A program made the position numbers and the translations under genes. DNA of 58,251 nucleotides, filler included, from Sluysia triapertura (Eukaryota), in NCBI GenBank assembly GCA_046118255.1. It is 4 parts of 4 records of this genome, joined end to end, with 100 filler letters (N's around TTAATTAATTAA, not from the genome) between each part and the next. Parts side by side here need not be neighbours in the genome. Positions count along the whole stretch, not along the records: positions 13,476 to 30,441 come from JBJNIA010194600.1; 3 more parts are not named here. One strand, written 5' to 3'. The first letter of the stretch is position 1, and the number at the start of each line of letters is the position of its first letter. Positions 8,906-47,077 of this stretch are shown piece after piece. Under the pieces are notes generated by a model. The model saw only the letters and a list, made by a program, of their open reading frames with translations. It did no database searches and had not been told where the DNA came from.

Positions 8906-9544
8906 CAAAGTTATTATTAATTCTCAAAGAATGTTGCAGTGATGTGTGAGAAATTGTTTAATAACAAAATTGGAAATTATTGGATGATGATAAAATATTA
9001 ATAGAAAAACTTAAAAATTTTACTACACAACGCAACAACTACGACAATAAAACAATAATAACAATTAGTAATTTAAATAAGATCAATGTTTTAAGTAATT
9101 TTTGAATTCATTTTATAATTAAAAATAATATTTTTTGGAGGATTTTATTAAAATAGGTTTTGTTCTTGTGTTCTGCTGAAAAATTTATATTTGATAATAG
9201 TTAATATTTTTCTTAATGTTGCGTTACCTCTGGTTTCTTTTGATAGATTGTTATATGCTTGAGACTATTATAAACGTTATTGTTAATCTCGTCATTTTAA
9301 TCATTTTTAGTACTGCTTAGAGATTTATAATAATATTAATTTCTAATTGATTTTTATTTAACCAGTAAATTGTTGTGTTATTGATTTGATTTCCAAGAGC
9401 TTAATTTTTGGGTGAATAATTATTGATATTAAATAAGAGAATTATTGAAAAGCTATATTTGATCTAGTGAATACTTAAATTATTAAGATTCTTTTTAAGC
9501 TAATTAAAATAATATTGAGCTATCATAGCTAGTAATTTTAAAGA

Positions 9545-10048
9545 CGCAACACATCATCACAAATGACAATTCGATTGAAAAATGGATCAGATTTGTCAGA
9601 AAGCAACAAGCTTCCAAACACTTGCTTCTTTTATTCAGTTCATGTAGAACTCACCCAACTTTTCACTTTACCGATTTGAACTAGATGAATTAATATTATT
9701 TGTTTTCTAACACCAAACGTCAACGTTAATTCATAGGAACTCTGAGATAGGTAAGACTCAATAATGACTTTTAGTTTGGCATCATTTAACTTTGATTCCT
9801 CACAAACGCGTAGATCAAAGTTTCCCTACAAAATTTTTCGAACTAATATGATGCTGTCTGTTGCACAGTAACACTATAGACAAATACATTATTGTTTTGC
9901 GCGATCTGTGATGTCGGATCCCACGTAAAAATTCATACTTTATGATAGTATGAATTTCCGAGCGTTCAACAAAATTTTATTAGAGCTTACAATGATTTAT
10001 TTTAAAGAGGCGAATTATGTAACGGAACGGTATAATCTCGGGCCCATA
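9545..10048 (-). mobile_element. Degenerate mariner (DD34D) 5' half in a GM130 intron
   Basis: Frameshifted translation gives EIHTIIK-YEFxRG, KLKVIIES..SQSSYELTLTFGVRKQIILIHLVQIGKVK, WVLHELNK (WVPHEL motif) and SDPFFNRIVICDD (RIVTCDEKW motif). Confidence 0.85.
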
Positions 10049-13375: not shown

Positions 13376-13475
13376 NNNNNNNNNNNNNNNNNNNNNNNNN
13401 NNNNNNNNNNNNNNNNNNNTTAATTAATTAANNNNNNNNNNNNNNNNNNNNNNNNNNNNNNNNNNNNNNNNNNNN
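13376..13475. other. Assembly linker (N44-TTAATTAATTAA-N44)
   Basis: Six-frame stop spacer between N runs; artificial. Confidence 0.98.
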
Positions 13476-14330
13476 ATATTAATTTATATTGCGCTCATAT
13501 CTACTGCAAAGTAAGTACTCAAAAGCGCTTAATGTTTCTGAAATAGAACAACTTTGCCTTTTTCTTCTATATTTCACAATCTTCCAGTAATTTAACATTC
13601 TCTGGTAGTACTGGTTGTATATTTTTGAAACATAAACGGTGTACAACCTATAACCTAGGTCTTATTATCACTGTGGATTCTGTATAGATTATTATTATTA
13701 TTATTATGTCTCAATGAAATATTCATCTTGCTTTCTAAATTGTTTATTATTTCTAAGAGATATTCAGGACTTCCGTAATGTAAGCATTTGTAAATTATTG
13801 TCATGATTTTGAATTCTCTTGCTTTTATTGGCAACTAATGTAATTCTTTAAGATAAGGTTTTACATGAGTCTTGCTGCTTGCTTAATTATTAATGGTAAT
13901 GTTTTCACTTTTCTATATAAAATTGAAAACAATAAACCATTGTTAAAATCAGTGTTATTAGTTATTAATAAATGAACAATTAGTTTAATAATATTATTAA
14001 TAAATTTATTATTAATTTATTAATAGATTTTCGAATATTTGATTTTTTATTTAATTGATATTTATACTTTTTGACAATACATTTAATATTTTTTCCATGT
14101 TCATTTTTGAATCTATATAACAGTCTATATTTCGTACTTTTCGTTTCGCATCTAGTATCTTACCACCTAAAATTAACTTTATTTCATTTTATTAACTTTT
14201 CTTCACTGATTGCCAAACCATTTTATTAATTAATATACTAGTTCTTCTGTTCTTTGAATGGTATTTTCTATGATGTTCATTTCAAATTCAGATATATATT
14301 TGCACATCATAAATTTTAATAAACTGAAGT
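13476..14330 (-). mobile_element. L2/CR1-clade LINE, 3' portion of ORF2 and 3' tail (degenerate)
   Basis: IYDVQIYI (YADDTQxY), KVRNIDCYIDSKMNM, LIVHLLITNNTDFNNGLL, IIKQAARL, HVKPYLKELH*LPIKAR.EFKIMTIIYKCLHYGSPEYL; 3' terminal AAGCGCTTTTGAG...GAGCGCAATATAAAT motif. Confidence 0.85.
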
Positions 14331-15510
14331 TTTATTTTAATTCTTATTTGTATTTGCTGTTTTGCTGTTTGTACAGTGATTATTCTTTAAATGCTACTTT
14401 TGTTATTATTTTGATATTTCTAGTGAAAATAGTATGTTAGTAACTAAGTAGAATAACTTTAAGTTAGATACCTAACAATTACTTTTAATTGTGTAACTAA
14501 AAAAATATACTAAACATGCAAATTATAATTTTATTAATTTTACAATATAGAGGTAATTAAATTTTAAAAATATCAAAATTTAAGTGTCTCCAGTCTGCAG
14601 CGTATGTATACTTGTAGCTTTCTTTCATTTGTCGAAATAAATTTTTAGCCTCTTATTTAGTACGAGTCCGGCACTTCAGGCCTTTCTGGACTCATATTGA
14701 ATTTATGAAATCAATCCCAAGCAAGATATATTTTAAAAATAAATATTCTTTTATACTTTTAATATTATTCTAATTAAAATTTTTAATTAAGAAAAATCAA
14801 AACACAATTACAAGTTAAGTATTAATTATTAAATCAATGAAATTTAATTTTAATCAAATGACTTGAATAACTTAGAAAACCGTTGCAATTTCAAATATTT
14901 TCTTTTTAATTATTAAGTTCAGAATTTTCATGAAGTGGTTCAATCACTGAAGTTATTTAATTCATTATTTTCTCGATTTACTCAGGTAATATCCTCATAA
15001 AATCTGAATTTAGTTTGATTAAATATCCCAAAGAGTTTTAATCTTAAAATAATATTTGTTCCTTCTTCTATATTTAGTTCTTATATTTTACTAACGCCTA
15101 TTAGTTACTGTGATATTATTAAATTTTAATTTATATAATTGTTTTGATGATATAAAGACAATTTAAGAGAAAGATATAACAAATTTAGACAGAGTTACAT
15201 AGGGTGCCCCAAAAGTTACCGAACCGCAAACTTAAATAAAAATTAGATATCAAAAACTTCAAATGTAATTTATTTTGTCATTTTATGTTATCTTCGCTAC
15301 TGTTCATTTCCTTCTGCGAATAGTAGTCTTTGGAATGACTTGTTGCGCAGTCTTATTGACTTTATTCTGATATCATTGTTCAACGAGCGCTTATGGACCC
15401 TCATTCTTAAAAATGGGAATGTTAACAGATAGAGTTGTGTTTATTGTGACAATGAGAATTCCCATCGTATTGTTTAAACGGAAGTCAATGTTTCTGGAGT
15501 CACAGCCTGA

Positions 15511-15669
15511 TGTTGGGGTAAAAGGCCTAAAAGTGCCATTTGGGAAAATTGAATATAATAAAAATGAAATTGTTAGATGGGGCTGATAGCTCAGTGGTAG
15601 AGCAGTCGGACTGCGCAGACGATGGTCCCGGGTTCGATCCCCGGTCAGTCCATTTTACGAAGTCTAACA
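15511..15669 (+). mobile_element. tRNA-bearing solo-LTR-like element, copy 1 (Helenus-like)
   Basis: Begins TGTTGGGG and ends TCTAACA; flanked by direct repeat CTGA (15507-15510 / 15670-15673). Inserted in a transposase frame that becomes contiguous when it is removed. Homologous to 35459-35601. Confidence 0.85.
15580..15652 (+). tRNA. tRNA-like sequence (Cys/Ala-like) inside the LTR-like element; probably not a decoding tRNA
   Basis: 73 nt. Acceptor stem GGGCTGA/TCAGTCC, D arm GCTC-AGTGGTA-GAGC (A box), T arm CCGGG-TTCGATC-CCCGG (B box), followed by TTTT. The anticodon arm is irregular. Confidence 0.7.
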
Positions 15670-17039
15670 CTGAGCTGAAATCGGCCCTTTCTTCTTTGAA
15701 GGAACTGTTAATGGTGAACGTTACCTAGATATACTGAAGACTAAAGTGTTTCCTATTGTTATTGAGTTCCCCCATTTCGGTTATCTTCAATTTCAACAAG
15801 ATAGAGCAACTGCGCACTCTACCAAAGATGTTCGACAATGGCTTGGTGAAACATTTCCTGAACGTTGGATTGGACAAATCGAATGGTCTGCCAGATTCCT
15901 GGATCTGACACCGCTTGATTATTTTCCATGGAGAGTTCTAAAGAACACTGTTTATGCTAAAATTGATCAACTAAAATAAAGTATTAGCACGAATTGAATC
16001 AAATTTCAGAGGAAACTTGCCAGAAAGTATGTCGCAGTGTTGTCAAGAGTTGTCGTGCTTATATTGAAGTTTAAGGTGGATATTTTGAACATTTGTAAAT
16101 ACTAAATATACGTATTAAATTTGTCGTTTTGTTTTTGATATCTAATTTTTATTTAAGTTTGCTGCTCGGTTACTTTTTTGGATCCCTTTTATTAAGATTG
16201 TCATAGAAAACTCGATAAACGTAGTTTCAGACAATTCCTAGTGCGTAACAAATAATAATAAAAACCCTCAAATTAAAATAAAGTAAATTATAAATTAATT
16301 TAATTAGTTAGGAAGAAACCAATTAAATTATACGTTAAAGTTGATCATTTATGATTACAGATACGCTCATAAGTTATGCACTGTAACCAAACACTGTTAA
16401 AATTTATTTATAAATATATTTTAAATAATATGTAGAGTATAAATAAAAATCGTACCTAAATTGATTTGAAAATAGAGTTATTTAACTATATTGATTAATA
16501 TGAAAATATTCACGGAATCAAATAAAATTAATGTTTTAGAAATTATTTTCATTTTTGCTTCAATTAATAAATATATTTAAATATGTATTAATAAGTGAAA
16601 TGTATTAGATAAAATTTGGAATGTGTTTTACTATGAAAATAAAATATAATTTAAGCATTATTAAATATTAAAATTATAATATTAATATTAAATATTAAAA
16701 TTATAAAATTACATCCTGACTTGATATGGGCCTGTGTAACATAGGGTATTCTAATTTTAATATGTAGATATAAATATCCGCGACAAACCACCCCCACGTT
16801 TCCCTGGAGATGGGTGGGTTTGTTTGGGTTACTGGGTTACTAGTTTATTCGAGCGTACGTAATTTGTATTTTGTTAGAGTGAATATTACAGTAAATTTGG
16901 ATTGTTCCTAGTTTATCATTTATATACTACTCATTTGTGTATAGAACTTATTGTGTATAGAGGTTATTGTAAATCCACATTCATGGAACGAAATGGAAAA
17001 TTCACATTTTAAGTAGTCAAAGTTGATTTTAATGGTCTG

Positions 17040-18335
17040 CTAATGCCACCATTTAATCCGACAACAATCCAAATTTATACAAGAATGTGATTGAAGAGCT
17101 GTGGGTGATCCCGGATTCTTTATTTCAATATTACCTATGTCTTTTCTTTTTAATGATTTAAAAAACATTAAACAAACTTTATTAACTAACTTAATTACTA
17201 ACAAATAAGGCTTAAGGCCTGAACTATTTAATATTATCAACATTAACAATAAATACCAATGAACACAATATATTAATTTAAAACAATTAGTATAAGTTAA
17301 CAAAAATACTCCATTAAATGACAAATACAGTGTCTTATAAAAAACAGTTAGAAAACTTCGTCGAAAACCGGAAGAATTATCGTAACCAAAAGATAAATCG
17401 ACTACATAATTAGTGTTGACATTTTCGATATTACAAGCTATTTGAAGATAAATGTTTTTTTTCTCTTTCATTAACTCAAAACATCTTACATCATGGTCAT
17501 CTATATTCGATTTAGATAATTTTACGATAAAACGTCCAGCTTTCGGTATGCTTTTGTAAAAAATAGAATAACGTAAGTCGTGAGCTAATTCAAACGCGTT
17601 GTTGTAATAGCCTAATGAACAAAATGATGGCTTATATCTAACATTACAATATAATTTATGACATAACTTTATTTGAAATAAACTATCAGTTAAGTTGAGT
17701 TTAAAAAACAAAATATTATTCAAAACGAATAATTTAAATGTTTTAAAACATTTTATATTGTTTGATATTTTATATTTAGTAAATAAAATTTGTTTACTAT
17801 TAGTTATCATTCTGTCTCTTCGTTCACGCAGTACTTCTATTAAGCCATTCCCTTGTGTACTGTGTATATAAACTAACAGTAATCGCCTTTGATCAAAGAT
17901 TTGATAATTAGCAATGTCATTCATGCAAACTAAATAATCATTTCCACATTGATCGGCTCGCTCTTGCACCTCGAAACATACAGAAAAAGTAGACAGTTTT
18001 TTTATAAATTCACTAAAAGCTGCTTGATTAAATGAATTGTCTGAAGTATTCAACATTATTTTATAACGAGCTCCATTGTTTGGTACATAGCATTCCAGAT
18101 CCCCAGTGTAATAAACTAAGGGTTGTTAATATTTTAAAAGAAAATAATTACATTTATCTTCTTTAACTTGGATTTTTGCTTTAACATTTTCAACAGTATC
18201 AGTTGATTTAACTTGCTCTAATAATAATAAAAAATTGTTATTATTTTTATTAAAATTACTGTCATCTTCTGATTTTCCCAATATTCGTTCTACTTCACTC
18301 CATAACTTTCGGATATATGTAATAGATTTACTCAT
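17040..18335 (-). pseudogene. Intronless ubiquitin-like + internally deleted HECT E3 ligase ORF interrupted by one TAA
   Basis: ORFs 18126-18335 and 17040-18056 are in one frame. UBL: [18 protein letters not shown]...*QPLVYYTGDLE. HECT start: FIVKLSKSNI...GYDNSSGFRRSFLTVFYKTLYLSFNGVF. HECT end: IEIKNPGSPTALQSHSCINLD. Confidence 0.65.
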
Positions 18336-18549
18336 ATTGATAGTTAAAGATATCTAAGCAATCGTTGCTTATTTTCGTTAGCTTTAATCTTTTAATTGAT
18401 TATTATAATTTATTTTTATGATTATGTAGATTTAGAAATATGCAAATAAGCATCATATATTTCAAGAACTGTTTCAATGCGGGCTTGTACTATTGGTTTT
18501 CTAAAACATATTTCCGGGCAGTAAAAATTATTTAAACTACAAACATTTA

Positions 18550-19449
18550 TCATACTAACACCTTGCATTGTGATTTATCATATCGTAAACTCAAAGAATC
18601 AGTACTAGTCATGCGTACAATGTTTTCCATTTGAATAAAAATAAAAATAAATAAAATAAAATAAAAAAAATTAAGAAGGCATTTTTCAATATTTTGTCTT
18701 TCTTTTTCAATTAAATTAGTTATTCGCTTAGTAAACATATTTTTCATTTCAGCTTCCTCTTGTTTAACATTTTTTTTAAATGCATTGATATTAAGGTTTT
18801 AAAACGATCTAGAGTAAAAGTATTGAGTTTCTTTATACTTTCCATTTCTGTTTCCAATGATTTTATAAAGTCATATTTAGTAGCAGTTAACTCAGATTGT
18901 ACTGATAATTTTACAAATTCCAATTGTTCTAAAGTTCCGGTCACTTTGTAAAGTTCCGATGTTAAATTTGCTATTTCTTCTTTAATAGGTTCCATTGCCT
19001 CTTCGAATATATTTAACGATTTGTATTTTCTAAATTTCTCATCAACTTCCTCACGTTTTTTTATTTACTATTGAATTTTCTTTCATTAATTCTCTAACAA
19101 AATCAAATATTTCTGCATCGCCTTTTTTGTTCGTTTTTCGAATACTATCAATAACTCCTTTTGCTAATTTTTGAAGTGCAGTTTTGATGTTTTGTAGAAT
19201 TTTTGATAACATTTTAACTTCTTCAAATTCTCTTGAGCTTTTGTCTAATGTTCTTTCTGTCCTATCTGATTCATTTTCAATAATTTCCAAATTTGACGTA
19301 TTCATTCGGAATTCTTGTCTTAACTTACTAAACAATTTGTCAACTGAAATTCTTTTGTTTATAAATATATACAACAACGATAAGAGTAAAAATAGTAATA
19401 ATAAGAATAAAAGAGGAAAAGGAAAAACAATTAATGATAATGATAACAA
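18550..19449 (-). pseudogene. Frameshifted coiled-coil ORF of unknown family
   Basis: Three consecutive E/K/L-rich ORFs (19051-19449, 18744-18995, 18550-18747) join at poly-A runs. Confidence 0.45.
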
Positions 19450-19547
19450 TTGTGTATTTATAATATTTACATATATAAAGTCAGTGATATTTATAATGAA
19501 ATTTAATATGAAAGTTATTATAAAAGTTATTACGAAAGTTATTATTT

Positions 19548-19702
19548 GTTAAAATTTACAACTTTAATTCGAATTTGGGAAAGACATTAATCGTAACAAT
19601 AATAATAATAGTTCATGATGGTTAAAATTTGTAACTTTAATTCGAATTTTGAAAAGATGTTAATCGTAATAACAATAATAATAATAGTTCATGATAGTTA
19701 AA
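19548..19702. repeat. Tandem duplication of a ~73-76 bp unit
   Basis: GTTAAAATTT..AACTTTAATTCGAATTT..AAAGA..TTAATCGTAA..AATAATAATAGTTCATGAT occurs at 19548-19620 and 19621-19696. Confidence 0.9.
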
Positions 19703-20269
19703 TGAGATGATCGTGTTTATTTTTGAATGAGTTTAATAGTTCGTTTAGTAGTTTGTGTATGTGTGTATCGTTTTTAAGTGATGATTTGTGATGAACTGAG
19801 TTATAGTGGATGTTGTGTGATGAATTGTGATAGATACCGTATGACGAGTTCCCTACAATCCATGCTATTGGTAACTTTTTATTTTATTTTATTTTTAAAT
19901 ATTAATCTTAATTAAGAATATTTTATTAGAATTATTTGTAATAAGATTGAGTTGTAATTAATTTAATTTTTTTAGGTACGGCCTAATAAAGATTTATAAT
20001 AATATTAATTTGTAATCGATTTAATCATTTTTAGTAGTGCTTAACAGAGATTTGTAATAATATGAATTTGTAATTGATTTTTTTTATTAGTAAATTATTT
20101 TGTTGTTGCTTTTAATTTGATTTTCTTTTAAAACAATTAGTTTTGGTGAGAATAATTATTCTTAATAATAAAAATGAAAATTGTTGATAATTGATATTTG
20201 ATTATTGAGTACATAAACAATTTTTTGTTAATTAAATTAATATCGATTTAACGTAAATAATATTTTGAA

Positions 20270-20826
20270 AGACTCCCAACAGGAGTTGAGGATGAAGTTT
20301 TATTTAGAAGTGAAGATAAATTAGTCGAAATAATGGTCATTTATTAAGTTTTACTAAAGCAAATACTGCCAACCAAATTGCAATATTTAGATTCATGAAC
20401 GATCCAGATTATGCCTATTACAATTATCTAAGAGATGTAACTATTACAAATGATGCTTTACATGATCAATGGCTAAATTATAATTTACTGTTACAAGAAA
20501 GGTCATCAAATTCTCAATTTATTGATTCCATCATGTTACACCAATTTTACTTACGACGTCAAGACAATACAAATGAAATTAAAAATATTATAGTTCTCAG
20601 AGTCTCATTTTTATCTACTAACTGCCACATCAACACATGATAATTCATGGTGCAATGTCACGAACACAGAGAATATATATATAATAGTTTAAAGGTACGA
20701 TCTTGTATATCTTATATTAATTTCAATTTTTATTCTTATTTGTTTTCTTCAGCTAATTATGATCTCAAACTGTATTATTCCAATATCAGTCCTCCGGTAG
20801 GCGAAGGAATGTTTCTATTCGAATAA
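20270..20826 (+). pseudogene. Unidentified gene fragment with one canonical intron
   Basis: ORF 20395-20640 plus a frameshifted extension; clear GTACGA...TTTTCTTCAG intron at 20695-20752. Confidence 0.35.
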
Positions 20827-23594
20827 ATTTACATTCAAATTCATATTAATATGTATTTACTTAAAATTTATTAAATTAAATTATGTTAAACATTTAATAA
20901 ATTTCTTCTAGTTTGTTATTATTTATTTTTACCTATTAAACATAATTTGATCAATAAAATTTTTATAAAGTTTTCGTTAATAATTAAATTTAGTAAACAT
21001 CTGTTGATAATTAATACTAATAAACACTATCTTAATAATCATCCACCAAACTATACATAATTCCATTAATTTATACATTCCATACATACATAAACAGCAT
21101 AAAATACATAAAAATTATTACATATTTCCAAACTTCAATAAATATCTTTCATTCATTTAGATACATTTAATATCACTTTATATTATTCTGATACACTAAA
21201 TACAAAACCATTATACTTAATATAACATCATCTTTGTAATTTCAAATCATAGTCAATTAAGTAAAGAAAAGTTTTCGACCAAAATGATGTATGCCGCATA
21301 AACATTAATAAGTGTAAACGCAAACGTAAGCATACATCAAAGCAAAATAACGCATTCCTTATAAAAACTTAACACAATTTTACACAAAATATCAAATCAT
21401 CAAACAATACACATAAAGCACAAATACAATTTTTATATCATACACCTTAAAATCTAACAGTTTCTAATTAAAATATGTTGAGGATTGTCGCTGACATTAT
21501 TTTTGTTACATCGTTGTTCCTTTTAATTACAAATTTTATATTTTTTTTATATTATGAGTGACTAAAATTATCTTAAATTGAGATTGAATAAAGATAATAA
21601 ATCAAAATTTGATAACACAATAAATAATTTAGTAAAAATAATTTTGGACTAAAGAATTGTACTGAAAATTAACATTAATAATAATAATAATCCGTACTAT
21701 TATAATTGAATTGTAGTAACTAATAATTTGTATTTTGAAATTACACCAGTAATATAACGTGTATATTAACGTCACCATCTGTTAAATTACGAAATATATA
21801 TATCATCGCTTGGAATATTATAAATACCGATAAAATAAAGTAGACAACACACGAAACATGTTATTTACGTTAAACATTTAGCAATAATACGCTCTATTCG
21901 ACAATACTTTATACTTGTAACTACCGAAGAAATTCCAACATAAATGTCTTAATGTAGTGAACTCCACATTTTCAATATCATATTGTTATCATAACTTATA
22001 TATTAATAACTCATAATAATTTCATATTTTCGTAATTCTATTAACTACATAATTCTATTATAATTTTATTCTCACAATTGTTATTAATTTCTGTATGTAT
22101 GCATGAATTTTATTCTAATGAATTGTTCCAATGTTAGTGCTAAGCCCTTCTATAAAAATCTATAAAATTAATAATAATTAATTACTGAAGAAACCTAAAT
22201 TAAAAAAATCAATTTATTGTACAAAAATAATTATGATGAGAAAATGAAAATAATGAAGATTATATCTTTATTTTATTTATTGCAAGTAGCAGAATCATTT
22301 TTAGTAGATGATATTGATTATACTAATGTTCCGATACAACCTAACAATATTCTGAAACCATTTGTAAATAATTCAACGGAGAATCATAAATATGAAACAT
22401 CAAAATGTCATATGATACTAAAATGATGTATAAATTAAGCGACTATTCATCAAACCTCGATATATACGTACGTATTTTATTATATATTGTTGTACTGTTT
22501 GTTACTTTTTTATTCAATAGATTCTTCGGTAAAATGGTTAATTTGTTTATTTTAAACTTTTTCGTCGTAAAGGCCTTACGCCTAGTGTTTTCAATAATTT
22601 TGTTAATTTATTTGTTTCAAAATATAATTACAATTAAAAATGTAATTCTAGCTAAAAATGAGTTTAATTTACTAAAAACATAAAGTTAAAGCCTTTCGCC
22701 AAACTTAGTAAGTTGATTTTTTGATCAAAACAAAAAGAGTTATTCATTAATTAAATTCTAACGTCATTAATCTGTATAATTTTAATAAAATTACGATCTG
22801 CTTAAATATACAATATTTGATAAGTTGATTCGAATAATTTTCAATAAATTTATTATTAGATTGACTTATTTCCTTTTCTTTTTGTGAACCAAAGGGATTG
22901 AAGATAGAGTTTTTAAAGTAAAATAAAGCTGTAAAAGTTAAATAAAAATATCATCGAATAAAATAAAGATGTGAAATAAACTAAGTTCTTTTGAGAAATA
23001 AAATAAACGTAGTAAAGCTCTACCAAATAAATTGATGGTCGAATACGATTCATAAACTAAGTTTAATCCATTCTAGGTAGAAATAGAATTTTAAATCAAG
23101 AAAACTTATAAGATAAATTATTTGTTAAGCGCTTCCATCTCGAACAACTGAGACGAACATAAGATTAACGACGTGAAGGATAAGTATTTAGACTAAATTA
23201 AACTTTTAAAACGTTAAGTGAATTAATATAGTGTATAAGTATTGATACACGATAAGGACAGTTACGATAAAAATAACTCACCGTGAGGAACTATTTGACA
23301 TACTAACATATTATCTATAAACCGCATTTTATAATTTTTTACATTATTTTTTATTACTATTACTGTTATTTTATTATTAGTACTACCTTAATTATTATTA
23401 CTATTTACAATCAATAGTCTGACAAATCTCCCAGAAGGTAAAGATTTTACAAATTAAAAAAAATATCACCATTAATAGTAAATGATTTTTTTGAAATTAA
23501 TTAATCGAATCACTAGATACCAAAACAAAAATTCAATGATATTAATGTTCAAAACCAAAAAAGATTAAAAATTAAAACCAATAATAAACTGAAA

Positions 23595-23993
23595 ATGGAT
23601 AGAGCTACTGCGACAAAACGTCTAGGCACTTTGAAGCATTTTATATTGAAAAATATTTATTTAGATGAAATTATTAAGTATTTGAGTGACTGTACTGATA
23701 ATTGTCTTAAATTAAAATGCTGGCAAGATCGTCCACTAAAAATTGATAATAAAGTCCAATTAATTTTAAGTGCAAACGATCTTAAAAATAAAGATATAAA
23801 TAATGATTTTTATGATGTCAGTAGTGGTGTTCATTATGGTGAAAAATCTTGTGAAGGTTTAAAAGTTCTTTTTTATCGAGCTCTTAGTGATGATATGAAA
23901 TTTCGTATTAAATACATTAAATGTGATATACAACAAAGTACACGAAATTTATGTCAATTAATAAAGTGCTTTAGAGTAGGGAAGTTGTGGTGA
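23595..23993 (+). pseudogene. Intronless ORF with degenerate nuclear-receptor C4 zinc finger
   Basis: DVSSGVHYGEKSCEGLKVLFYRA...CDIQQSTRNLCQLIKCFRVG matches the NR DBD (DxSSGxHYGVxSCEGCKGFFRR...CxIxxxTRNxCQxCRLxKCFxVGM) but several Zn-binding Cys are lost. Confidence 0.8.
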
Positions 23994-24949
23994 ATAATTA
24001 CGCTCTTGACGGTTATGCAATTAGAAAACAGGTCATGGGTCGGATAATGGCAGATCATGCAATGGTATTCAAGGATTCCTAACGTTTATGTCACTTTATG
24101 GTTTCAATATTCGATTAAAATTTAATTAATTAATTTTGTCAAACATTACGAGTTATTGAACAGTTAATTTTCATTTTGGCAAACAATATCGCTAATTGTT
24201 ATCCTATTGTAAGTAAAAAGCAGTTAATTTACATAAATGAGATTTCTTGCACATATTTTAACATAAAAATTTTATCGTTTACAATTAAAAAAACGAAAAA
24301 ATCTATAAAATTTTTATTTTGCACGGTTTGAAATAACTTTATCGTTTATATAAATATTTTATTTTCAAATAGAGACTTTATTTTTTGATTACTAAGGGTT
24401 CGGGAAGCGGGATTTTTTAAAAATTTAAAATTATAGTTTATATAACCCTAATTTATCATTTCAATCTTTAAGAAAAGAGACGAGTATTGAACTCAATCTC
24501 CAAGTTAAATTTATGAGAGAATTTAATATTAAAAAGTGAAATAAACTAGCATACTTTAAAGATACAATAATAGAGAATTTAATTTTAAACAAGAAAGACA
24601 CTGGTAAAAGTAAACGAATGAGCTAAAGAGTCATTTGATAAACAGTTAGATTTTAGAACTCGGTCATTAAAATAATTATAAATAAATTTTGAGTAATTTA
24701 TATAAAAGGAATTAACAAGTATATATAGAGATATGGTTGAAATAACCATAAACAATTAAAGTACTACTATAAAAGTTATAATCTTTTACGAAAAAGAATA
24801 AGAATTATAAATTAAACATTTACCCACAAGTTGGAAGTTATTTTACATTTGTATAAAAGTTGAAAATTTAACATTAAAAGATAAACTCGAAAATAACTAT
24901 AAATAATAAATCTTGAGAATTAAAGTCAAAGCTTACTATTAATATTTGA

Positions 24950-26300
24950 AATTAAAAGAGCATGCCATTAAATATTATTTTACACAGAGATCAACGAATT
25001 TACCTAGCCATGAATGCCAAGTTGACATCAAATATAGAAATTGCTCAGTGATATTTGGCATAAAGAAAGATATTACAGGAAGAGAAATAAACGTAGTAGA
25101 AAAAACTAAATTGTGAAATTTGCGTCCTAAAAGCACGGTATTGAAAGCTTATTAAAAGAACTCTGCTACTATTGCAAAGCAATTGACCGAATTCTAAAAG
25201 TACATGACAGAAAATTAAACAAGAATTTCATTTGAAATGACCACCGCTAACAAGTACTCTAACCATTAAAAATATCATTAATTATTTCCAGAAACCAATA
25301 ATAATTCATGCGTTACAGGACAAAACGATCAATATAGAAAAGAATGTAATTCCATACGAAACACGATTTTGGAAATAGAAAAGTGTATTAAGCAATTAAG
25401 CATTAATCTTTTAGGATATAAAATAAATCTATCACAGATCATAAGGCATTGATATACATACTAAATATCAAAACCCTAACCAGTAGACTGTCGATCGAGT
25501 TTAGTGTTGATGAAATATCAAAATAGAATATAAAAATGGTACGCATAAAAAAGCTGACTTTGTCTAAACTTGAAAACGTTAACAAAACCGGAGAGTTATG
25601 TGCAGAAGCAGACGTGAAAATGTGTGAAGAAATCGCATTTGATTGGCCACTAACTAGATATTAGAAAATGGTTTATTAAAATGTGTATCAAATTATACTA
25701 AGAAAAGGTTTTATCAGAATCTATTAAGGTGGCCCTAATGAGTTTTGCCTATAAGTAAAAAATTAAAACTAACCAAATTTGTGCTTCTTGAAAAAAACAT
25801 TGGAGTTAAACCTAACTCACTAAAACCAACTACTAAAAGAATAATAGGTACACATTAATGTTTTAAGATTGTCAAACTATTATCTACAGGGAACTCCTAA
25901 AATTGCTCACATATGTAATAAAACATCGTCAGTGTCACTGGCCATAATTATCAAATTCTTTGAAATTTGACTTGTTGAACGATTTAATGTGTTTCAGTCT
26001 TATGCTAATTGAAACAGAATGGAATATACATATTCGATATATTTGACCACTGAAGAAACTCTTACCTATTTAATCTCTAGTGGTCATTAAATTAGTACAA
26101 ATCTCAATCCCAATATTTGGAATCGCAAAATTATTAAATTAAATTACCCTCCAATTTCAGTGTGTAGATTAAACGAGGCCTGGATTAGAGATATAAACCA
26201 AAGAAATAGTGAAATTCAAAAATATATTGGCCACATTAAAAATACAAAATATAAAGCGAAAAGTAAAATAAGATTTGTCAACTAATAGTAGTACTCTAAA
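24950..26300 (+). mobile_element. Highly degenerate Ty3/Gypsy pol remnant (RNase H core ~25400-25570)
   Basis: ITDHKALIYILNIKTLTSRL and KIEYKNGTHKKAD match Gypsy RNase H/connection motifs (TDHKxL...RLARW; IxYxxGxxNxxADALS). Outer limits approximate. Confidence 0.7.
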
Positions 26301-26869
26301 TTTGTAACCGGTGGTATTTTAACTTCTTTGATTATATTAAATATTTCATTGAAATTATATTATACATTTCGATTAGTAGCACCACAAGTTTGAATGTTTT
26401 TAGCTCGTTTTTATCGTCATCATAATTCGACTGCGTCATAAATATTAAATAAGCTCAAATTTTTACTTGCTTAAAATTGCCTGTAGTCTTCAACACAATT
26501 ATAAATTTACAATATATTTGTTTGAAACGGGACTTTAAAATTTGTAAACTTTGCTCATCCGTCTTTAGCAAAGATAAATAAAAAGAACCGTGTATAATTT
26601 TATTTGGTATTTACATTGATCTTTCAGTTACTCAAAATCATTTAAGTGTGAATTATTTAAAATAAATATTTTAAAATTTTTTGAATAAAGTTTACGAATA
26701 ATCTTGATTTAACCAATTGACAATTACACAAATACAATTGTAATAATATCTGACATGAAATGAATAAGTCAAAAGAGCAAAATAAAACTTTGCTACTTAT
26801 ACAAACATTTAAAATAATATATAAAATTACAAAATATGAAAGTCATTGTGGAAAAATGAGAAATATAAA

Positions 26870-27545
26870 AATACATTTCTTCATAAATTTCAAACACAAC
26901 TCAAACACATTATTTCACTAAAATAATCATTGTCCATTCCATTACTGTAAAACTCGGAGCCGAAATGTTTTGCATCATAAATTTCTCCAAGTTCTGTCTT
27001 CCAAGTGTTGCAAAGTGTGATCTCAAAGAGCAATATCTGGACTAACTGGTATGTAGCCAAATTTTCCATTAAATTCTGTTAATGCATTCCGAATGACTTT
27101 TGAGATATTGTATTGCCATGAAGAAAACTTACACTTTTTATATTCATAAATACTGGCCAAATTTCTAACATTTTTGGCGTATTCAATTTAAGTGAAGACA
27201 AAGTATGCCAGACGTACCCTGTCATTTTCATCCACTTTGATGGATTCAACAGTCAGTCTTTATAATAAAAATGCAACTGAGATTCTTAGAACTTTCTGCT
27301 ATTTTTTATTATCTTTCCAAAGGGTTTTATGTAATATACAATTGTCTGCTTATTTTCAAGCATTGACTATTTCTCTACTTCAAAATTCCAAACCTCATTT
27401 TACAATTCTGAGCATCACCAGATTTGGGCTTCTGTAAGTCGTAGGTTCCTCATTTAAATTTTTGCAACCACTTTTCAAATGTTCTTCACTGGCTTTGGAA
27501 CCAGCTTTATACTCGAAAAGAATGTAATGTTGAATATAAACCTCA
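26870..27545 (-). mobile_element. Degenerate mariner transposase relic downstream of pbx
   Basis: Fragments HYILFEYKAGSKASE (HTH start), RTFEKWLQKFK, FLHGNT (xLHDNA) and PVSPDIAL*DHTL (YSPDLAPSDYHLF), with many stops and deletions. Confidence 0.75.
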
Positions 27546-27733
27546 CCATAAAAGCATCTAAAAATACTAAATAATAAAATATTTAAATTTGCTACCGTAG
27601 TAAATTTAAATATTTCCTAGTCCTTCGTTTTATGTTTGAAGTTGCTCATAAATTTCTTTACAATTTTTGTAAACGTTTATTTATTAAATACCACTCGAAC
27701 TACTTGTCAAAATGTTAGAACCACAAAAAAACA

Positions 27734-28954
<1,221 letters not shown>

Positions 28955-30371
28955 AGAGTAATAATTACGCACAATATAACCATCAACTAATTAAAATGGC
29001 AAACATTTAAATGACTTGCATTTTTTAATTTATTTTGATAATAAATTTGATAGATTTAAACAAATATTCTTTATTACGAAGAAAATTATTTACAAATAAT
29101 TTAATCAGAATATTAATAAGCTAATTTAATTTTATCAAATTTAAAATTATTTTTAATTATTTTAGGATTTTCTATTTTTTTATTATTTTTATGCATGATT
29201 TATTTTAATTATAACTTTTTTCTTTATTATTACTACTGTCCTCTTAATCTGTTTTTGATGTTAATTTCTCATGAAAATTTATTATCTTAGCTCATCAGTT
29301 TGTAAACAGAAAACCGCCTTCGCTTATATATCACATTTGATTGTTCATATACAATAAACTAAACGAATGCATCTACTCTCATAATATAGCGATTATTTTG
29401 TTGTTAAATTATGTATAAGTTTTGTCCTCTGTTTATGTCTATCAATTCAATAAATAATTTCTTTCAGGCTTGTCAATTAACATTTGTTAATATTCTCCAA
29501 AACAAGCAATTGTGCTTATAAAATTTAAGCATGATAAAGTGTATTAATTATTACTTAGCTTTTTAATTGATGTGTTTGAATAATATCATGTACCTTCTTT
29601 AATTTGATATAATTTTTCGAATATTTTTTCTAAAAAATTTATATAATTAGAAAATAAAGCATGATACTATATATAATAATTAGAACAAAAATTTAGTAAA
29701 ACAAAATAACAAAAATTTTTATCTAAGAAATAAATCAAACATGCAATGTCATGCAATTTAAACTACTTTTACTTCGAATTATTAAAGTTGAATTAAAAGG
29801 GACGAAATAATTTAGCTTAAACGAACAAATCGATATAACTGAGACATGTTATTCAATCTAATTAGCAAAATGGGTTTATTAAGATACTCATTACTGCAGA
29901 AACAAAAACGATTATTTCAAAATCTCATTCGACGTAATTCTTTTGTAACAGGTTGTGTCCGTATGTAAACTGATAAATCCTTATTTATATTTTTCATTAG
30001 TTTCATTAATAATTAAAATAAAACATATTTTAATATATTAATTGAAAATTTATTATTATAATTTTGTAAAAAAATAATATTAATAAATAATATTTCAAAT
30101 ACACAATTAATTAAATAATTTAAATACGATATATTTTAGAAAAATTATAAATTTTCAATATTACATGTAATTGTAAATTGTAAATTGTAATAAATAATAG
30201 TTTAATTTAATTTAGTTTATAACTGTGCATTCTATATAGGAGATATTCATTTTGATTTCTGGATTTTTATTATCTCTAAAATATAATGTAATCATTGATA
30301 AATATATAGCTGATAAAGATTTGGTAAATATGGGTTTGATCCTAAACCTTTACTAAATTATAAAGTAATAC

Positions 30372-30441
<70 letters not shown>
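30372..30441. repeat. (AAT)n microsatellite at contig end
   Basis: Pure AAT run up to the linker; similar runs at 3421-3461 and 13341-13373. Confidence 0.95.
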
Positions 30442-30541
30442 NNNNNNNNNNNNNNNNNNNNNNNNNNNNNNNNNNNNNNNNNNNNTTAATTAATTAANNN
30501 NNNNNNNNNNNNNNNNNNNNNNNNNNNNNNNNNNNNNNNNN
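30442..30541. other. Assembly linker (N44-TTAATTAATTAA-N44)
   Basis: Identical 100-bp spacer. Confidence 0.98.
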
Positions 30542-35458: not shown

Positions 35459-35601
35459 TGTTAGACTGACCGGGGATCAAACCCTGGACCTTCTCTGCGC
35501 AGTTCAAATGCTCTACCACTGAGCTATCAGCCCCGTCTAACAATTTTATTTTATTACAGTCAATTTTACCACATGGCTCCTTAGGCCTTTTTACCCCTAC
35601 A
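35459..35601 (-). mobile_element. tRNA-bearing solo-LTR-like element, copy 2
   Basis: Minus strand reads TGTAGGGG...GGGCTGATAGCTCAGTGGTAGAGC...GGTTTGATCCCCGGTCAGTCTAACA. TSD TATA at 35455-35458 / 35602-35605. Lacks the CATTTTACGA-containing segment of copy 1 (deletion between two AGTC repeats). Confidence 0.85.
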
Positions 35602-46977: not shown

Positions 46978-47077
46978 NNNNNNNNNNNNNNNNNNNNNNN
47001 NNNNNNNNNNNNNNNNNNNNNTTAATTAATTAANNNNNNNNNNNNNNNNNNNNNNNNNNNNNNNNNNNNNNNNNNNN
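46978..47077. other. Assembly linker (N44-TTAATTAATTAA-N44)
   Basis: Identical 100-bp spacer. Confidence 0.98.

Follow-up and report, generated by a model that had tools for sequence, protein, structure and literature searches.

A repeated chimeric reading frame in a probable planarian genome derives, by homology, mostly from a CYHR1/ZFTRAF1-like E3 gene

What is the long open frame on the minus strand at 17040-18335 of the Sluysia triapertura window (the whole 58,251-nt stretch of DNA analysed, filler included), and is it the disabled fusion of ubiquitin-like and HECT parts that a preliminary description took it for? The contig piece holding the frame spans 13476-30441. Separate contigs are joined in the window by N-padded linkers (13376-13475, 30442-30541 and 46978-47077) that carry stops in every frame, so that this ORF and the golgin gene at 10-13 kb are not necessarily neighbours. 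GC content of the ORF region is ~25%, and its layout is the following:

17040-18335, minus strand: chimeric reading frame, 431 codons, with one internal TAA (codon 70) and a TAG at the end
18116-18151, minus strand: candidate intron, an AT-rich GT..AG stretch of 36 nt containing the TAA, proposed from size and borders
16920-17039, minus strand: continuation past the TAG in the same frame, about 40 codons

Shuffling the same DNA 2000 times gave a mean of 38.8 stops and a minimum of 19, against one internal stop in the ORF; being far more open than the shuffles, the frame is real and derived from coding sequence. Its 361-codon part is the longest stop-free stretch in the window. Translation bears out the coordinates first given for the single TAA (18128-18126) and for the Cys codon (17081-17079, aa 419). 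That the gene was recently disabled does not follow, because the TAA sits in the intron-like 36-nt GT..AG stretch, about the size of host introns: candidate introns at the exon borders of a PBX gene on the same contig measure about 37-48 nt. The TAA is also located in a segment without counterpart in P0002, the closest homologue described below. As for the continuation at 16920-17039, by eye only, it resembles the last helix of a HECT domain; Pfam and PDB sequence searches of that continuation gave no match. A word-based homologue search with the 361-aa frame as query returned 0 matches among 1271 candidates, and no relative was found in viral contigs (464 pattern matches, 0 confirmed).

The search that placed the protein was a phmmer run of the ORF over 1.84 billion proteins, with 22 matches. 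Of these, 21 align over a short ubiquitin patch (four of these sequences were read), and the sole other one, P0002, is also the best (E 3e-11). It is a 484-aa protein with TRAF-zinc-finger and Sina-RING Pfam matches below cut-off, and among Atlas clusters it lies nearest to ZFTRAF1/CYHR1 with PF28124 (score 0.97); the CYHR1/ZFTRAF1 label is reached through P0002 and not by a direct profile match of the ORF. Three parts of the ORF align to P0002 in order, each with 0/300 shuffles scoring as well, and the remainder (aa 36-85 and aa 316-431) has no match to it. From the N-terminus onwards, the parts are:

18231-18326, minus strand: N-terminal helix, CYHR1-like (aa 4-35 against P0002 6-32)
18159-18215, minus strand: ubiquitin fragment (ubiquitin residues 16-34), inside the ~50-aa segment without P0002 counterpart, from PDB, Pfam and shuffles
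17919-18080, minus strand: RING-start remnant of CYHR1 type (aa 86-139 against P0002 47-100), from the alignment
17409-17858, minus strand: C-terminal domain of TRAF-C type (aa 160-309 against P0002 224-385), 30% identity, pairwise E 1e-9
17043-17390, minus strand: open tail (116 codons) without P0002 match, hydrophobic over aa 350-381
17304-17375, with the Cys at 17079-17081, minus strand: HECT-like motifs in the tail, not significant against shuffles

Set beside CYHR1/ZFTRAF1 (RING, TRAF zinc finger and CYHR1_TRAF_C, PF28124, as represented by P0002), the ORF shares the helix, the first RING half and the C-terminal domain, in order and at ~30% identity. It differs in that five of the eight RING ligands are gone (three kept, three replaced, the last two deleted), the TRAF zinc fingers (about 141-223 of P0002) are missing through an in-frame deletion, a ubiquitin fragment is inserted, a hydrophobic tail replaces the acidic one, and the sequence is repeated instead of single-copy. 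A second homologue, P0024, confirms the RING part only, and the C-terminal match of P0002 is not common to it (232/300 shuffles). The structure predicted for the ORF from a 3-row alignment has a mean pLDDT of 32, and the TRAF-C fold is unreadable from that model. Judged by these alignments, a CYHR1/ZFTRAF1-like gene supplied over half of the ORF, and the E3 behind it is of the RING/TRAF type and not HECT. A RING needs two zinc sites, and since most of the ligands for them are lost, the ligase part would be gone; on sequence grounds the ORF product cannot be a RING ligase.

Ubiquitin similarity is confined to aa 41-59, where 13/19 residues are identical to ubiquitin 16-34 in the PDB sequence search and where none of 2000 shuffles equals the patch score (taken against 8 ubiquitin units from stored proteins). 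The Pfam ubiquitin profile matches the ORF at E 0.0078 with 16.4 bits, short of the 25.4-bit cut-off, and only its model positions 14-33 are aligned. Elsewhere, the piece QPLVYYTGDLE after the stop is equalled by 207/2000 shuffles; for ubiquitin residues 1-12 and 59-72 the ORF offers no counterpart (560/2000 and 688/2000 shuffles), and residues 52-71 find their best place before the patch, out of order (34/2000). The similarity is thus a fragment of ~20 residues and not the whole beta-grasp domain of ~72 aa. What was first described as a ubiquitin-like part survives as this patch, without the whole domain or the second piece, and the profile evidence by which that description would have let its ubiquitin claim stand or fall is divided: a Pfam match exists, and it lies below the cut-off.

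The tail is where HECT similarity had been proposed. Its 116 codons are stop-free, as in none of 2000 shuffles. No HECT match to the ORF came from Pfam (PF00632), PDB sequences or phmmer over the 1.84 billion proteins, the Pfam outcome being the one that the preliminary description had itself named as speaking against it; the control locus L001, one member of our custom profile, reached 317 bits with Pfam HECT. The custom profile comprises 14 domains (20 of 119 metagenome loci with a long enough open frame, near-duplicates removed) and is narrow, its members having been picked by a NEDD4-type motif. With filters off it gives the ORF an E of 0.03-0.06 and negative bit scores. Its best places in the whole ORF are precisely the two motifs named earlier, in the right order and frame. 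The N-lobe motif is matched by 135/2000 shuffles (102 with a shorter cut; p about 0.05-0.07), the cysteine motif (SHSC) by 386/2000 over 10 columns and 1197/2000 over 14 columns, and both in order by 203/2000 (joint p about 0.1). The motif scores are 15 and 11, against 93-109 and 74-76 in real HECT domains, and the two motifs stand ~95 residues apart in the ORF versus ~275 in the profile. The HECT-like span, put at ~160 aa before, is about 115 aa from the first motif to the TAG. We also considered whether these could be exons of an ordinary spliced HECT gene and rejected it: there is no HECT signal in the frame, and the other tail frames are full of stops. The HECT motif was not found in viral contigs either.

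Plant UPL5-type ligases combine UBL and HECT, and in the ORF, likewise, a cysteine motif close to the end is preceded by a ubiquitin-like patch; the ORF differs in having no detected HECT domain, no whole UBL and a CYHR1-derived core. The UPL5-like layout with a catalytic SHSC is not supported, given no HECT signal and a cysteine motif within the reach of shuffling. The original proposal, an intronless ubiquitin-like/mini-HECT fusion with catalytic cysteine that was recently disabled, is therefore highly improbable in our estimation: the ubiquitin patch is real and the motif order is as described, whereas the protein lacks a whole ubiquitin-like domain, a HECT signal and most of the HECT length (~350 aa), and its middle comes from CYHR1. 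An active mini-HECT is very unlikely. A milder proposal, unlikely as well, takes the tail for a heavily deleted HECT remnant, an N-lobe start joined to a C-terminal end, within a CYHR1, ubiquitin and HECT fusion. Such a tail, in our view a doubtful one, would lack the E2-binding N-lobe and would not make an active ligase, so that the proposal differs from the explanation favoured below on the tail only. The placement of the two motifs and the N-lobe score speak for it, as does a tail open beyond chance, which must come from coding sequence or be selected; the joint shuffle result, the low motif scores, the lack of any match in Pfam, PDB or phmmer and the short spacing (measured with a narrow profile) speak against it.

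In whose genome the frame sits, and how often, was read from a host gene and from read contigs. Three further features matter here:

27740-28954, minus strand: host PBX/extradenticle gene with short introns, used to place the host
18550-19350, minus strand: coiled-coil coding stretch upstream of the ORF, in three frames and in the same repeated region, with weak coiled-coil Pfam matches
19437-19702, no strand assigned: very high-depth AT-rich repeat upstream of both frames, extending over at least this span and containing a tandem duplication of 73 nt (19548-19702)

For the PBX exon at 28954-28634, identity to a cluster with Schmidtea mediterranea PBX is 82% along 90% of the exon, versus 58-60% for parasitic flatworm matches of similar coverage; named parasitic flatworms score far below that cluster, and the host is probably a planarian (triclad). 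Read contigs from four of six runs (X1-X4) were compared over 16500-19700, with 32 of the 1815 pieces listed. The flank contig of run X1 (16500-17035), at depth 11.4, shows no difference from the window, while the four listed contigs of this run inside the ORF have depths of 215, 342, 247 and 230 with 27, 1, 17 and 4 differences, respectively, and no gaps. These depths are 20-30x the single-copy flank (in run X1 only, and contig depth is not copy number), and they drop to flank level near 16.9 kb. Most simply, the ORF is repeated, in tens of copies and at least two subfamilies. The coiled-coil stretch is covered over 18678-19188 by one run X1 contig of depth 270, and the repeat at 19437-19702 reaches a summed depth of up to ~300,000 per bin against the 11.4 of the flank. 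Runs X2-X4, labelled as other organisms, carry the same differences at ~1/100 to 1/400 of the X1 depth, leave 16821-17034 uncovered and include a few pieces gapped inside the ORF. Most simply they are a trace of the same DNA, and we did not count them as cross-species conservation.

The ubiquitin segment stands out within this pattern. A run X2 contig joins 18119 to 18234, weakly (depth 3.4, with 21 letters on its shorter side), and a loose end in run X1 at 18230 has 14 letters in common with 18099-18112, a hint that the segment is a later insert missing from some copies. Summed contig depth at 18194 in run X1 is 44,297, ~4,000x the single-copy flank and far above the remainder of the ORF; sequence close to ubiquitin apparently travels with a far larger repeat family.

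Differences between copies allow a look at selection. Among the 165 found, 40 were listed, 33 of them inside the ORF, a small and selected sample. These 33 comprise 8 silent changes, 25 changing ones and 0 stops, where random changes would give 26% silent, 69% changing and 5% stops, and they spread over codon positions as 12/9/12. The listed differences, few and selected as they are, show no amino-acid constraint, which argues against a constrained protein. Even so, the frame has remained open while identity dropped to 30%, a large piece was deleted, an insert came in and the tail was replaced. This leaves two options, earlier selection or selection whose only target is an open frame.

Other parts of the window contain further traces of repeats and host genes. 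On the plus strand, a 158-codon frame at 23517-23993 closes with a match to the C4 zinc finger of nuclear receptors (Pfam zf-C4, E 5e-10); several of its cysteines are lost, and it looks like a decayed host fragment upstream of pol-like scraps. The latter, at about 24900-26300 (plus strand), are short frames whose words we take by eye to be the RNase H-like and integrase-like ones of gypsy pol; the three pieces scanned gave no retroelement Pfam match, and these scraps lie on the opposite strand to the ORF. A 106-codon frame at 20320-20640 (plus strand) has a weak SURP-module match (E 0.32) and is possibly a further host gene fragment. At 15201-16187, 57-nt inverted repeats 873 nt apart flank a transposase-like frame (15674-15979), presumably a decayed Tc1/mariner element, into which a tRNA-like SINE head is inserted at 15580-15652 (the only Rfam match, a tRNA-like one) that recurs at 35494-35552. 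A 58-nt tandem unit occupies 19934-20273 together with a dispersed repeat also found at 9296-9545.

Starting from the homology, the losses, the insert and the repetition, which the data show, we favour, with moderate confidence, a reading in which a repeated element carries the ORF as chimeric, ligase-dead cargo of CYHR1 descent that works like the accessory ORF of Burro elements. The starting point would be a CYHR1/ZFTRAF1-like E3 gene of the host (with RING, TRAF zinc fingers and TRAF-C), captured into a repeated planarian element, perhaps from RNA through template switching in a retroelement. Within the element, the gene would have lost its RING ligands and, by an in-frame deletion, its zinc fingers, and would have gained a ubiquitin fragment early in the frame and an unrelated hydrophobic tail. 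The chimera would then have been amplified along with the element, in whose lineage selection presumably held the frame open. If made, the product may be a ligase-dead TRAF-C adaptor or decoy, perhaps tethered to a membrane. It is more likely, though, that the sequence now drifts with little constraint than that it plays such an adaptor or decoy role. Of the chimeric E3-like cargo of a mobile element envisaged at the outset, the mosaic of host ubiquitin-system pieces and its repetition stand, and the HECT identity gives way to a RING/TRAF one with the RING destroyed.

Several points weigh against cargo. Nowhere in the 17-kb contig piece is the ORF linked to gag, RT, integrase, a pair of LTRs or any other hallmark of an element, and no Burro polyprotein is among the phmmer matches; the silent share of the listed differences is about that expected without selection (26%); the C-terminal match of P0002 is missing in P0024, the cargo reading does not account for the tail, and a tandem array of host genes may underlie the repetition instead. 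Host genes alone, in the form of a lineage-specific family of duplicated, fast-evolving CYHR1/TRAF-C paralogues whose TAA is spliced over and which owe nothing to a mobile element, would account for the candidate 36-nt intron over the stop, the long open frame and the lack of a linked element enzyme. We hold this to be improbable, as copy differences fall evenly over codon positions, the ORF adjoins an extreme-depth repeat and a broken coiled-coil frame of its own depth class, and the ubiquitin patch is far deeper than the rest of the ORF. Less easily set aside, if still unlikely, is that the frame stays open for RNA-level reasons only, e.g. to avoid nonsense-mediated decay of the element RNA, and that the protein has no function. 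An open frame with neutral-looking differences is what it predicts, although the 33 listed ones are a small, biased set in which the lack of stops, where 1.6 would be expected, is not significant. At the other extreme, and improbable too, a giant retroelement would have captured CYHR1, dropped the ligase parts and grafted on ubiquitin and HECT pieces, its expressed decoy jamming host TRAF/ubiquitin signalling.

For the cargo reading, the closest known parallel is Burro/GYPSM1, giant gypsy-like planarian retroelements with thousands of copies, whose motifs include an Smc coiled coil, RING, MATH_TRAF_C, a Ubi2/SUMO-like and a BCL-2-like one; a Dugesia tigrina element has MATH_TRAF_C in an upstream accessory ORF (PMC6431247). 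Burro is abundant and PIWI-silenced, and the available portions of the reports describing this hold no cargo information (PMC8532177, PMC11410931). As with Burro/GYPSM1 and the D. tigrina ORF, the host here is a probable planarian, the sequence is repeated and a tandem repeat lies nearby; likewise, a separate TRAF-C-type ORF stands beside coiled-coil, RING-derived and ubiquitin-like sequence (PMC6431247). The minus-strand order, with the very high-depth repeat, then the coiled-coil frames, then the TRAF-C frame with ubiquitin and RING remains, appears to fit the Burro front end, as a resemblance. Differences are plain as well: gag, RT, integrase, env and an LTR pair are unlinked here, and the two are likened by description, not by sequence. 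No CYHR1 donor is named in the accessible part of PMC6431247, and the ORF has a ubiquitin fragment in place of a Ubi2/SUMO-like domain. The BCL-2-like motif that follows TRAF-C in Burro was not recovered in the ORF tail, and a BCL-2 origin of that tail finds no support, with 855-1593 of 2000 shuffles scoring as well in a comparison with two BCL-2 proteins (from 5 loci), a weak test. That the ORF may belong to the Burro family itself we put at about an even chance.

Capture by a Helitron or Pack-MULE would likewise patch together pieces of host genes, in which traces of introns may persist (PMC6431247, as far as its accessible part goes). The present case differs in that the candidate 3′ hairpin is neither more stable than chance would give nor of high depth: we rejected a Helitron end at 16780-16842 (hairpin before CTAG), where stability does not exceed that of shuffles (z -0.23) and depth is ~20.

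Gene capture by mobile elements is known in planarians, and the CYHR1-derived chimera most likely adds to it. CYHR1-derived or HECT-bearing planarian cargo was not found in our literature search, and the primary Burro description may already list the ORF. The ORF is a traceable example of how a host gene is captured and reshaped in a planarian repeat. If it only drifts, it amounts to a note for repeat annotation. The interference of Burro with host ubiquitination and apoptosis was deemed "worthy of experimental confirmation" (PMC6431247), and that idea would be easier to test on a compact accessory ORF whose donor is known and whose catalytic parts are clearly gone. Were the decoy reading true, a TRAF-C accessory ORF of Burro type would have its donor named, and planarians would offer a small, testable case for the proposal that such elements meddle with host ubiquitination and apoptosis.
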